Source of the DNA: an uncultured Thermoprotei archaeon
Lineage (GTDB): Archaea; Thermoproteota; Thermoprotei; Thermofilales; B15-G2
Length of the DNA stretch: 64,000 bases
Assembly (NCBI GenBank): GCA_965367815.1
Contig: CBDUKN010000005.1
Location: forward strand, 32,001 to 96,000
Direction of reading: 5' to 3'
A model generated the notes under the pieces. It ran no database searches. It was given only the letters and a program-made list of their open reading frames with translations, and was not told where the DNA came from. This document shows, piece by piece, positions 8,313-19,909 of the stretch. The translations under genes were made by a program, and so were the position numbers. Numbering within the stretch: position 1 is the first letter of the stretch; each line of letters begins with the position of its first letter.

Positions 8313-11300
8313 ATGAAGGAATTATACAGAGCTCTAGTGCTACTGATGATACTTCTAGTATTTCTTCAGCCCGAAGTACTGGGCAAAGAAAATCCTTTTG
8401 ATCTTAGAAGCTTTATTTCTTCAATAGACTTCAATAGAGTGTGGAATTATACTAAAGTACTCTCTAGCTATAGATCTCGTGTACCAGGTTATCCAGGCTA
8501 CTATAAGGCAATTAGATTTATAGCTGAATACTTTAGGAAAATCGGCGTAGGGTATATTCTAGAGAATTTTTCTGTAACTTCTCCTATAGAAGAAAAAGTA
8601 TATATAAAGGTTATTGAGACAGGCGAAGTTTTAGAGGCTCATGCGCTTTGGCCCAACATGATTGTGACGTCTAATATTGATTACAAGGGGAGAATCGTTT
8701 ACGGAGGTAAAGGAAAGCTTCTTGATTTCAACGGAAGAGATTTAGAGGGATCTATTGTTTTACTGGATTTCAACTGTAGATGGTTCTGGACGAATGCTTT
8801 TTCCTTGGGTGCTAAAGCTGTAGTTTTCATAGAGAATAAGTCTACTTTGAGGTTCGATGCCTGGCTCAAAGTCTTTCATATGCCAGCATATTTTCCTAGA
8901 CTATATGTTGATAAAGAAGTGGGAGAAAAATTAATTGAGTACGCTGAAAAGGGGTATCATGTAAAAATATATTCTAAGGTCGAGTGGCGTGAAGTAACTG
9001 CTACAAATATTGTGGCCATGATTCCGGGAACAGATGTAATTTTGTCTAAGGAGGCTGTGTGTATAGTAGCTCATGTAGACTCTCTTTCTCCAGTTCCAGC
9101 AAAAGCTCCGGGGGCTTCAGAAGCATTTAACGTAGCTCTTGTACTTGAACTAGCTAGACTCTTCCTTAAGTTAAAGCCTAAGAGAAGTATAGCAATTTTG
9201 ATTACTGGGGCTCATGGCTTGGCTTTGGCTGGGGCTAGAGAATATGTTTCAGTGCATTTTAACGAACTTGGAGTTAGAATAAGGCTTGTAGTAGAGCTTG
9301 ATTTAGATTGGACAGGCTCAGAGCTAGCTGCACAGTACTATGGTTTGTTTTATAACTTGTTGGCCTTTGTTCCAGGCTATGAGGCTAGATATAGGTGGGT
9401 AAGAGACCGTATGATCAGATACATGGATTCGATAGATGAGGCTCTTGGAGAAAAAGTATTTGTATACGATACATTGTCGCTTACGTACTTCTTTTACGAG
9501 CCAATTCCCTGTTTCTTAGACAGCGAAGTATTCGCTTTAACAGGCATACCTGCTTTCACTTTAAGAACATTTTACAGCTTTAGACCATGGCTATACACGC
9601 CATATGATACTTTAGAGCATGCAGACATAGATTTTGCGGAAAAACAAGCTAAAATAGCTCTCTCTATCATCTATTGTTTTACAAAGGATTCAGAGAAAAT
9701 GCCTTCCTCAACCCCTACTACAAGAGGTGTAGGATACGGATTTTCGTACATAAAGGGAAGAGTGTATAGGTACAATAGAACAAAGGGGTGGTTTGAACCA
9801 GTTTCAGCTATAGTGGCTTTACCTATGTGGCCTTATCACATAGGAGTGCTAACAGACTCTAATGGGACTTTCATAATTAAGGGAGTGAGATACAGTGGAT
9901 ACTACTGGCTTTTAGGATTTAGGCTAAATGAAGAAGGAACTGTTGAAGCAGCTAATGAGTATGGTGGATTAGGGCCTGTACTGCCCATGCTTTTCGGTGT
10001 TAGTGTCTATAAGACTATTTCTGAAGTAAACATTAGAATAACTGACTGTGGCTCACTTGTTATTACTAATGCATATGATCCTAGGTTCTTTATTCCAGGA
10101 TATTTGTCTTTCTCGGTTCTTAATGCTACTTATCATACGGCGCTGATAAGCCGGGGGCCTCAATACTGGTACTGGTATTCTCAAGTACTTATTCTTCCAG
10201 CTGGCACAAGAATAGAAGTAGTTATGAAAAGAGGACTCGATGTAGTCGCAGTAATAAATAATGCTTCTCCCGAGAATCCTTTAGGAAAGGGCTACTCTAT
10301 TGAGAAAGGTAAGCAAATTTTGTTAGAGAACTTTCCTCTTGTGGCAGCAAGTACTCTTTATACAATACTAGACTATAGGATAAAGACGCTCAGAGTATAC
10401 AGCTATAGAGTTCTAGACTATCACAAAGAAGCAGGAGTCTTAATAAATGAAAGCAGAAGACTTCTAAGAGAGAAAAAGTATGGAGTAGCCTATGCGTCGA
10501 TGTTAAGAGCGTGGGCTATGGAGGCCCATGCGTATAATTCTTTCCAGTTTCTGTTAGGAGACATAGGTTTTGCACTAATAGTTATTGTTGTACTGCTTTT
10601 CATAGCTTCTATGAGATTGAAGCTTTTGTTTAGAAAGTCGTCTAATACTGTTGCATTTACTTGTTTTGCTTTATCGCTATTCGTAATTTCGCTATGTCAC
10701 CCGTCTGTAAGAGCATGCTCTTTAGGCCTCTTTATAGTTCCTTCAGCTGGAGCTCTGTTAGTAATAATAGTTGTTGTCATATCGCTACTTAAGACTTTTC
10801 TTTCTCAAATAATGAAGATTAAAAGAAAGCCTCCTAGAGTATTTTCTCGCAGAGTTTTTGCAGAAATACTTCTCTTATCTCTTGCCACTTCAGTAAGTTT
10901 CTTTATGTCTGGTAATCTTACATATGTAACTCATATAAGTGAAGCTAGGCTAGGGGCCAAAGGGTCTTATAGCGGCATAATGATAAGGACTTTTCCGTGG
11001 AGTGTTCTATGTGAGGCTGAATACGATATAATCAGGAGCGAAGTCAAAGCTCTCGGCGGGTACTCTTCTATGAGAGTATGGGCTTATCCTCACTATGGTG
11101 AAGTTCGAGTAAGCAATATGACTATTCTCAAAGCGTTCTTAGGGCTGGGATTAGAGGAAGTGAAGATATCGAACATAAAAAAAGCTATAGTCAAGGGAGG
11201 CTGGTTTAGTAGTGAATTCGCGAAGGAGTGTATAGTTAGCTCTTTCTTAGCTAAAACACTAAATATTAGTGTTGGAGACGAAGTTGTACTATATGGACTT

Positions 11301-19700: not shown

Positions 19701-19909
19701 TGCAGTACATCGCAGTAGGCTACGACTCGGGTCTAGCTGGAGTAATTTTGACTATTCTTTCATCTAAAGCAGGGAAGAAAATACTGCTCATAGAAGACAA
19801 GAGGAGCAAAACTAAGAAAGAAGAGAGGTCTTTTGCTAAGCTAGAGGTAACAGAAGTTTCTCCCAGTGAGTTAAAGAGAATATTTGGCTACAGAGAGTCA
19901 TTAGAATAA
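16748..19909 (+). CDS. FtsX/MacB-like permease with large ectodomain and C-terminal CARF-like Rossmann domain
   Basis: Signal peptide; EGKIP...MASALGAKCGDKV...VVGIFD...DLDG; FtsX signature NVYERKREISILASLGL...EGAVLG...PALKAS; C-terminal RILVALGENP...PYEVIVLTT. Confidence 0.8.
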   Translation: MRNKAAIVIIVWLVLLPVFSKFIAHPSSSTIKITFIDEDSENPVVGVFLMKSGNKWLYVKTNNRGEIIVNKNSLIYGPRISPKPYFPIKIIALKNTTIKLKKAYFIVMKKYLALYNPYEKIEKISPIGAISFEVNNMRFGYKSDARYLGLNSSTVLVPVSGEIILIKTNNFILSINATQAKWGDYIELDLGKVSCKYNKIFLDNSIAKLKEQMSILERKGIYVGFCKTLFEQLIELKNKAEEFYKRGNWEEALVAYKKAFLIYGDIVNRINVLSTRSTLTVPTISLVLVFLSYFLASFITDKKFKKILLYSCIYFILLLIIFAVYPILLEGNPYLTISPLFIYLFSLIIFILSEKIPDHYIREGFSFAAATSASLSIVLRENRRRKLRLTLTLLTIALVAFAVHTLNTLTIIQWFYEKEVAYVSSAYNGSILVTKLKESVFPYYSLSIVFVRTISNIDSPQIICIKRESSPYSKEFKISYGEKEVYALGAISFTSEVKYFLPLKEAVIEGKIPSQESEVLLSQTMASALGAKCGDKVSINGIEATVVGIFDEDKLSEIRDLDGGKILPVMITREEGSWRLEVIPAKYTIICSELLGERLKLPRYKIYVKVLGNPEDYARKAAILTGSLVFINMGGKVKYYTVSTVIVVKGESLIIPIVIALLTVFVSIMENVYERKREISILASLGLNPSNIAYLFSLEGAVLGFVGSALGMFAGFIAFKAFSLAEVLVPVDFKLSPVELLFTVVAATLVSITASLPPALKASVMVTPSLERRWKLEEQKDFIERGLTQTLPIRIPANRVEDFVNYVVSKFRELSTGLLQKVDLISVEKIGEEYRILFKYYKGSDISYKSCFTENTLILYKISDNVYGAKATSKPVTQHSKLGLYYVHETLSFLRKIALEWSSRATRILVALGENPAVLYTIVKKYDPYEVIVLTTPERIETVSNAKKILVKEKIRVPAIRVYSLSSLSELFKLKEDLRILLSEVQYIAVGYDSGLAGVILTILSSKAGKKILLIEDKRSKTKKEERSFAKLEVTEVSPSELKRIFGYRESLE

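Follow-up and report, generated by a model that had tools for sequence, protein, structure and literature searches.

A group of four genes at positions 8313-19909 of a 64,000-nt stretch of DNA from an uncultured archaeon of the Thermofilales (contig CBDUKN010000005.1, here C5; the stretch as a whole is referred to as the window) is a single copy of a membrane system, so far unstudied, that is widespread in archaea and extends to some bacteria. Two of the genes encode very large proteins with an FtsX-type permease core (P0001 and P0004, termed giants here). The other two encode polytopic membrane proteins: P0002, which resembles the oligopeptide transporter (OPT) family, and P0003, which carries the Pfam domains DUF6785 and DUF6784. 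We assign a probability of roughly 0.6 to the reading that these genes form one of several paralogous copies of a type VII ATP-binding cassette (ABC) system with five components, similar to MacB, FtsEX, and LolCDE, with its engine encoded elsewhere in the genome and with an OPT-fold path for uptake. Within this reading, the link to an ATPase is held more confidently and the direction of transport less confidently. An earlier note on the same DNA, written from its letters, is referred to as the initial annotation.

Linkage of the genes was examined in 60 loci around OPT-like matches from 23 genomes of the same taxonomic order, with no more than 3 loci per genome plus three extras; three partial OPT-like matches at contig ends (G027:C63, G024:C61, and G018:C71) were left out. 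A giant was present in 60/60 of these order-level loci, within 300 bp of the OPT-like gene in 57 and on the same strand in 50, and start and stop codons overlapped or nearly abutted (gaps of -120 to +21 nt) in most of them. Recurrence in 60/60 related loci therefore places the arrangement far beyond chance. A DUF6785-like gene was found in 48 loci, many of the remainder being cut by contig ends, and a second, shorter giant similar to P0004 was found in 10. Loci from other families of the phylum contained a giant in 19 of 20 cases and a DUF6785-like gene in 16 of 20. The linkage persists between Archaea and Bacteria at approximately 30% protein identity, with gene order and orientation differing. 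These data show that the giant FtsX fusion, the OPT-like protein, and the DUF6785/DUF6784 protein constitute a conserved triad.

At E <= 0.001, an OPT-like protein was detected in 25 and a giant in 36 of 41 genomes of the order, and the OPT-like family was detected in 54 of the 301 genomes sampled across the phylum. The genome that carries the window (G000; 2.45 Mb in 37 contigs) holds at least six triads, with about 12 giants of 1000-1530 amino acids (aa), 6 OPT-like proteins, and 7 DUF6785 proteins. A phmmer search of this genome found six places where a giant like P0001 adjoins a gene like P0002. There were 14 FtsX matches in open frames of 617-1533 aa, and four ordinary FtsX genes (open frames of 223-424 aa) that each adjoin an ABC ATPase. 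OPT-like paralogues number up to eight per genome. The closest relatives of the window triad are a trio in another family (L062-L064; E values of 1e-220 for the giant, 1e-125 for the OPT-like protein, and 1e-74 for the DUF6785-like protein) and not its own paralogues. A second full triad (C5:20329-31811) ends about 200 bp before the first base of the window and encodes a DUF6785-like protein of 707 aa, a giant of 1492 aa, and an OPT-like protein of 638 aa, after which comes a gene for a P-type cation ATPase of 902 aa. The same genome also has a three-giant cluster at C3:114207-133777 (L086). Two proteins of that cluster (683 and 637 aa) were considered as DUF6785-like and rejected: one is a penicillin amidase, and the other is weakly C25-like.

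Evidence for a physically linked ATPase came from bacteria, where it was strongest, and from archaea with a single module. Five bacterial contigs with 64% GC were found by way of a 1660-aa giant labelled Thermodesulfobacteriota by NCBI, and the gene order in all five was giant, DUF6785-like, OPT-like. On the three contigs that reach upstream (L115, L116, and L117), a short FtsX (52.9 bits with Pfam) and then a MacB-type ATPase precede these genes in a tight co-directional operon, which spans 251-10998 in L116, and the ATPase shares 62-66% identity with its archaeal counterparts; the remaining two contigs are cut inside the giant. Because an ATPase and a short FtsX head the bacterial operon, the system is taken to have five components. 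In single-module archaeal loci (L065-L068, L076, and L080), the ATPase and short FtsX were located a few kb, up to about 9 kb, from the triad. Genomes G086 and G234 (L065 and L066) have a tandem short FtsX plus two ATPases a few kb away, and two loci from another family (L067 and L068) contain a short FtsX, a giant of 1057-1072 aa, a DUF6785-like gene, an OPT-like gene, and the ATPase, all in about 17 kb. In genome G124 (L076), the ATPase is two genes from the giant.

The genome of the window has 59 ABC_tran matches, none of them above cut-off on C5. The sole C5 match (21.8 bits) is to the Walker A motif of an archaeal ATPase_2 protein encoded on the minus strand at window positions 3904-4998. 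This 364-aa P-loop protein was considered as the missing ATPase and rejected, since it is ATPase_2/NACHT-like and has only Walker A in common with ABC_tran. The 44 ABC ATPase open reading frames (ORFs) of the genome were ranked by similarity to four FtsX-linked ATPases. First in rank came a 243-aa protein at C4:10332-11063 that has no adjoining permease; its Walker A, signature, Walker B, and H-loop motifs are canonical. This orphan ATPase is 74% identical to an ATPase on contig C9 that adjoins a 212-aa FtsX lacking an ectodomain (the pair spans C9:63012-64375).

Orthologs of the orphan ATPase (80-97% identity) were present in 21 of the 41 genomes of the order. All 21 were among the 26 genomes with a strong giant match (best giant E < 1e-30), and none was among the other 15. 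Five complete genomes of non-carriers had best ATPase matches of only 46-48% identity, which adjoin ordinary FtsX genes (frames of 387-395 aa), and only two FtsX genes each scored above the Pfam cut-off there. Five carrier genomes had an ortholog of 81-87% identity (72% in G097) with no FtsX match on its contig or within 30 kb, and in the same five a paralogue of 70-72% identity (68%, a partial match, in G014) adjoins a short FtsX. No FtsX or giant ORF was found within about 4 kb of the orphan-ATPase ortholog in 20/20 loci. At a clade threshold of E <= 1e-85, and with carrier lists compared by hand, the ATPase clade was detected in 71 genomes of the phylum sample, including 54/54 OPT-like carriers, and 230 genomes had neither. 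Several of the clade matches in other families (G087, G103, G157, G095, G165, G201, G131, and G228) contain a single in-frame TAG or TAA, which could reflect a pseudogene, a sequencing error, or recoding. Among the 60 order-level loci, only 3 had any ABC ATPase ORF, and none of the three belonged to the MacB-type clade. Those in L007 and L016 were rejected as members of the system, being only 34-37% identical to the orphan ATPase, and a partial ORF in L017 (119 aa) did not match it. Taken together, these data point to a cognate MacB/LolD-type ATPase at the level of the system, encoded outside the window and predicted to bind its permeases.

Whether the giants retain a site for such an ATPase was examined with a hidden Markov model (HMM) of the region from transmembrane (TM) helix 2 to 4 (FtsX-C), giants shorter than 900 aa being excluded. 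The HMM replaced a strict regular expression that had failed to recognise the canonical FtsX proteins; it matched 93 of the 96 proteins scored, giants and canonical FtsX proteins together. The segment after TM2 was strongly conserved: its residues E, R, E, G, and P were found in 81, 89, 84, 91, and 87 of 94 aligned rows, respectively. We take this segment to be the major coupling helix, on which the ATPase docks in MacB and LolCDE structures. In the alignment of P0004 with its relatives, E674, R675, and E678 of this motif were invariant. The HMM missed only P0001 and two of its orthologs, one from the same genus and one from the family of L062-L064. An 18-residue deletion, located after residue 1132 in P0001, removes the coupling helix from P0001 and its same-genus ortholog, and in the P0001 orthologs of the other family (L062-L064) the segment is present and unrecognisable. 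P0001 is 24-34% identical to giants that have the motif and is, as judged from these alignments, a degenerate FtsX-type member by descent. Having lost the coupling helix, it probably cannot dock an ATPase directly. Of the two giants in the window copy, one is therefore decoupled and the other canonical.

The permease core was also recognisable in profile and domain searches. P0004 matched LolF, MacB, LolC, and YtrF in the PDB, and a profile of the giant family matched MacB (E 1e-16, positions 1111-1291), YtrF (903-1295), and LolC/E, spanning the whole permease. With Pfam, P0004 scored 51.7 bits for FtsX (cut-off 25.5), below cut-off for MacB_PCD (23.6 bits), and weakly for TPR; P0001 scored below cut-off for MacB_PCD (21.6 bits) and PA (15.9 bits) and had no FtsX match. 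In a hydropathy scan, both giants begin with a signal peptide and an ectodomain, continue with three extra TM helices and a short basic linker in the cytoplasm, and then have FtsX TM1, the extracytoplasmic domain, TM2-4, and a tail in the cytoplasm. Hydropathy, Pfam, and the profile matches agree on an FtsX-type topology, in which both termini are cytoplasmic and a large extracytoplasmic domain separates TM1 from TM2 of the four TM helices. The giants share with MacB, LolCDE, FtsEX, and YtrF (type VII) this four-TM topology, the extracytoplasmic domain, the coupling motif, and a MacB-type ATPase, and the pairing of unequal permeases (a giant with a short FtsX) may resemble that of LolC and LolE. 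Unlike those systems, the giants add three TM helices, a cytoplasmic tail of 130-290 aa, and, at the N terminus, an ectodomain that ranges from about 250 aa (P0004) to more than 700 aa (P0001); one engine apparently serves many permease paralogues in trans; and the obligatory partners are two OPT-fold proteins. To our knowledge, no OPT-fold partner exists for any characterised type VII system, and literature searches likewise found none. The second part of the P0004 tail (tail 2) looks like a detachable module: in the same-genus ortholog (L002) it lies within a separate 271-aa ORF that follows a 770-aa giant. Pfam searches of the tails and middle ectodomain gave only a weak OLD-like TOPRIM match (tail 2, E 0.0019) and a weak TPR match, and an Atlas search with the P0004 tail (aa 765-1053) gave no usable match.

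The head of P0001 scored 51.3 bits for Peptidase_M28 (cut-off 21.3). Its best match was to PA-domain M28 aminopeptidases (PDB 2ek8, E 4e-19), which the family profile of the giants also matched (E 2e-38), along with transferrin receptor, glutamate carboxypeptidase II, and nicalin. Active-site positions were assigned from the Aeromonas and Streptomyces aminopeptidases, in which the set is His, Asp, Glu-Glu, Asp, and His as zinc ligands plus catalytic Glu. These positions were scored in 76 giants, those shorter than 1250 aa being excluded. Compared with PA-domain M28 aminopeptidases (2ek8; YwaD, 6hc6), which are the best sequence matches of the head, P0001 has His-Gly in place of Glu-Glu and Ser in place of the last His ligand. 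The Glu-Glu pair occurred in 0 of the 76 giants; 60 had His at its first position, mostly followed by Trp or Tyr, and the last His position was mostly Ser, Ala, or Thr. The first His ligand was His in 38 and Tyr in 31. D256, E/D270, D330, and E405 are conserved in the heads, and H301 is also in the retained set. On this basis, the P0001 head is not a canonical M28 peptidase and is probably a non-peptidase, with a remodelled binding site or single-metal/ligand site being possible. Transferrin receptor and nicastrin/nicalin, which are non-peptidase M28 proteins, likewise combine PA and M28-like folds with loss of the canonical catalytic residues; the giants differ from them in the set of residues kept and in the fusion of the head to an FtsX permease. 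Other giants have heads of the Phospholipase_B/AAT-like, CarboxypepD_reg, and DUF4185 types. One 1200-aa giant of the C3 cluster has a Phospholipase_B/AAT-like (Ntn-hydrolase-type) head and is encoded directly downstream of a penicillin amidase gene (457 bits); neighbours of giants also include GH57, a PMT-like glycosyltransferase, and FG-GAP proteins.

The families of P0002 and P0003 align as full-length homologues. An hhalign comparison of 80 OPT-like with 66 DUF6785-like sequences gave a probability of 99.9% and an E value of 1.4e-35 over 571 columns. In agreement with this, the Atlas model of P0003 aligned to an OPT cluster with TM-scores of 0.58/0.65 across 511 residues, and Atlas clusters scored 0.95 for DUF6785/DUF6784. 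Pfam placed P0003 above cut-off for both DUF6785 (31.8 bits, cut-off 25) and DUF6784 (40.6 bits, cut-off 26.4). P0002 reached 25.6 bits for OPT against a cut-off of 25.8, and its paralogue on contig C3 of the same genome reached 60.7 bits. The motif E-x-[LM]-x-FP occurred in 65 of the 80 OPT-like family members. The eukaryotic OPT motifs NPG and KIPPR are named in PMC3061005, a 2011 survey of the OPT family, which also describes prokaryotic OPT homologues as uncharacterised at that time. By exact string match, neither motif was present in P0002 or P0003, and among 146 family members KIPPR was found in none and NPG in 13. The OPT-like family is small: worldwide, a search of 1.84 billion representatives gave 1392 clusters at E <= 0.001 and 382 clusters at 1e-30, and the family profile matched no solved structure by sequence. 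The proteins are like OPT/YSL (PF03169, TC 2.A.67) in size (about 610-690 aa), polytopic nature, weak to moderate Pfam OPT scores, and similar predicted fold. They differ in the lack of NPG and KIPPR, in the small size of the family, and in always occurring as two divergent paralogues beside a giant FtsX.

According to the five-component reading, the shared ATPase and short FtsX would drive each giant, probably as a LolC/LolE-like heterodimer, and ATP-driven mechanotransmission would move the ectodomain. The fused head would capture or process an extracellular oligomer, and the substrate so captured would cross the membrane through a heterodimer of the two OPT-fold proteins, most likely in the direction of uptake, as an oligomeric nutrient. 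Because of its remodelled M28 site and lost helix, P0001 is read as a substrate-binding subunit that would be coupled to the ATPase either through the canonical P0004, encoded 700 bp downstream, or through the short FtsX. A hetero-oligomer of the module proteins is plausible because the genes form one conserved functional unit. More tentatively, and as something possible rather than probable, the system may represent a new class of primary active importer, in which a MacB-type mechanotransducer, powered by one shared ATPase/short-FtsX engine, would capture different oligomers outside the cell with interchangeable hydrolase-like heads and pass them into a heterodimeric OPT-fold channel.

The initial annotation had the OPT-like subunits supply the pore or the energy, with no ABC ATPase. 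Carried through, this would make the FtsX-like subunits receptors or anchors only and leave proton-coupled transport to the OPT-like proteins. Such a model agrees with the lack of an ABC ATPase on the contig and its near absence from the order-level loci, and with the fate of the coupling helix, which is deleted from P0001 and from the ortholog of the same genus and has diverged in the orthologs of the other family. Eukaryotic OPT proteins are, moreover, secondary carriers. However, the ATPase is inside 3/3 bacterial operons, its clade accompanies 54/54 OPT-like carriers, the coupling motif is kept in 93/96 family members including P0004, and the engine genes are near the module in single-module genomes, so that we find the model quite improbable. 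At the level of the system, a dedicated ABC ATPase is consistently linked to the genes, in the bacterial operons and single-module loci; the central ATPase-free inference is therefore not supported, and it suits only the P0001 copy, in which the helix was lost. Other parts of the initial annotation fared better. The genes do recur as one conserved unit, and its statement that the combination has no functional characterisation is in line with literature searches, which found nothing on the system.

There are two further alternatives. The module could export substances or, in the manner of FtsEX, control surface hydrolases or the remodelling of the envelope. ATP-driven movement would then switch the head at the cell surface, where it would act on S-layer, glycans, or lipids, and the OPT-like pair would recycle or export the products. 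The type VII ABC systems described so far, MacB, LolCDE, and FtsEX among them, serve in export, extraction, or regulation and are not known to import, OPT proteins being known as secondary carriers, and both the varied hydrolase-like heads and the neighbouring penicillin amidase, GH57, glycosyltransferase, and FG-GAP genes would suit such a role. We nevertheless consider it unlikely, since the M28-like site lacks the canonical catalytic residues in 76/76 giants, the number of OPT-like paralogues per genome is more like diversification for nutritional substrates, and no consistent envelope-biogenesis gene was found in the examined loci. It is also conceivable that the genes are co-regulated neighbours with separate functions that form no complex, and that the ATPase co-occurs with them through shared ancestry only. 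The genomes compared are related and do not count as independent, and the assembly is a prediction. The overlapping or nearly abutting start and stop codons in most of the 60 loci, and a linkage kept between Archaea and Bacteria at low identity despite rearranged order and orientation, make this explanation very improbable.

Several observations weigh against the five-component system itself. P0001 has no coupling helix, the head types vary, and the neighbouring genes give no consistent clue to the substrate. An ortholog of the orphan ATPase of at least 80% identity was missing from 5 of the 26 strong-giant genomes (G010, G019, G027, and G036, 79-93% complete, and G037); the fetched locus with the giant match in G037 (L058) is a 3.3-kb contig. 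Conversely, the ATPase clade was detected in 17 of 247 genomes without an OPT-like match, a set defined by the OPT-like search, and G002 has a C9-type ATPase without giants. The orphan ATPase also lies in a conserved housekeeping neighbourhood (C4:7957-11636 in the genome of the window; L095-L114): of 20 loci, 16 have an ABCE1-like gene close by on the other strand, and 18 have a THUMP-domain gene immediately downstream. The ATPase could have another role there. The archaeal link to the ATPase is a correlation among related genomes, and the counts overstate their independence. Contacts among the components are inferred from genes and sequence.

Literature searches returned nothing relevant on DUF6785/DUF6784, on FtsX in Thermofilum, or on an archaeal combination of FtsX with M28 or an oligopeptide transporter, and work on MacB mechanotransmission in archaea, as judged from its listing, included none on this system. 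As far as these searches reach, a conserved, obligatory pairing of type VII and OPT-fold proteins in Archaea and Bacteria is undescribed. If the preferred reading is correct, this would be a type VII ABC system whose partners are without precedent and whose engine is shared in trans, and a case of a single ATPase used by many permease paralogues. The system takes up a visible share of a 2.4-Mb genome (about 12 giants, 6 OPT-like, and 7 DUF6785), and the reading offers a testable function for two Pfam DUFs and an orphan ABC ATPase. Its carriers are uncultured archaea of sediments and vents, and the system may bear on how such heterotrophs acquire polymers. If the importer direction is also true, the loci would be an archaeal, and partly bacterial, counterpart of uptake loci of the polysaccharide-utilisation type, with one motor for up to a dozen receptor/permease modules.

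The features of the window cluster are listed below. ORF sizes, overlaps (measured here as 20 nt between P0001 and P0002, and 19 nt between P0002 and P0003), and shared orientation are as first described, as are the common architecture of the two large proteins and the lack of an ABC ATPase in the window. All motifs quoted in the initial annotation were located: TDSNGTF (aa 514), VVGIF (aa 1000), and DLDG (aa 1014) in P0001; TNNRGEI (aa 61), VVGIF (aa 546), and DLDG (aa 560) in P0004; EKLDFP (aa 157) in P0002; and EEMPFP (aa 182) in P0003. Its domain calls of an M28-like/FtsX fusion, two OPT-like proteins, and a second FtsX fusion hold, except that the M28 label does not extend to a canonical site, the Glu-Glu pair being absent throughout and the last His replaced in nearly all giants. 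NCBIfam gave no match for P0001 or P0002.

Features of the giant FtsX/OPT-like gene cluster in the window (nt, nucleotides)
Feature	Window position (nt)	Strand	Protein position (aa)	Basis
P0001, giant subunit, 1318 aa	8313-12269	+		ORF listing
P0001 signal peptide			1-24	
P0001 PA/M28-like head	8427-9707		39-465	
P0001 beta-rich and helical stalk			466-740	
P0001 three extra TM helices			742-836	
P0001 FtsX TM1			847-866	
P0001 MacB-like extracytoplasmic domain			867-1100	
P0001 TM2-4			1101-1189	
P0001 cytoplasmic tail			1190-1318	
P0002, polytopic OPT-like membrane protein, 613 aa	12250-14091	+		ORF listing, Pfam
P0003, DUF6785/DUF6784 protein, 654 aa	14073-16037	+		ORF listing, Pfam
Basic ORF between P0003 and P0004, 105 aa	16143-16460	+		ORF listing
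P0004, second giant, 1053 aa	16748-19909	+		ORF listing
P0004 signal peptide				
P0004 beta-rich and TPR-like ectodomain			28-276	
P0004 three extra TM helices			277-358	
P0004 canonical FtsX/MacB permease, TM1			387-412	
P0004 canonical FtsX/MacB permease, extracytoplasmic domain			413-640	
P0004 canonical FtsX/MacB permease, TM2-4			641-760	
P0004 coupling-helix motif			674	
P0004 tail 1, cytoplasmic, common to P0001			761-905	
P0004 tail 2, alpha/beta	19463-19906		906-1053	

The gap of 710 nt between P0003 and P0004 contains the 105-aa ORF, of which both the protein and the position are kept in the same-genus genome (L002:12884-13201). A Pfam scan assigned it to no family, and its membership in the system is uncertain. 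Upstream of the cluster are guaA and guaB on the opposite strand; downstream are genes for a GFO/IDH/MocA oxidoreductase, TYW3, and adenylosuccinate lyase. These flanking genes have unrelated housekeeping functions. The sequencing runs that contain the stretch are labelled as hydrothermal-vent and sediment metagenomes, and no RNA run is among those listed.

Other genes of the hydrolase type in the window encode a ceramidase-like protein (32291-33598), a transglutaminase-like protein (37769-39472), a 968-aa GH35 beta-galactosidase-like protein (42892-45798, minus strand), and a GHL10-like protein (52631-53701); together they fit a polymer-degrading lifestyle. At 34715-37451, a URO-D-like gene of the methyltransferase type adjoins a gene for a RACo-like corrinoid activation protein (Fer2, Raco_middle, RACo_C_ter).

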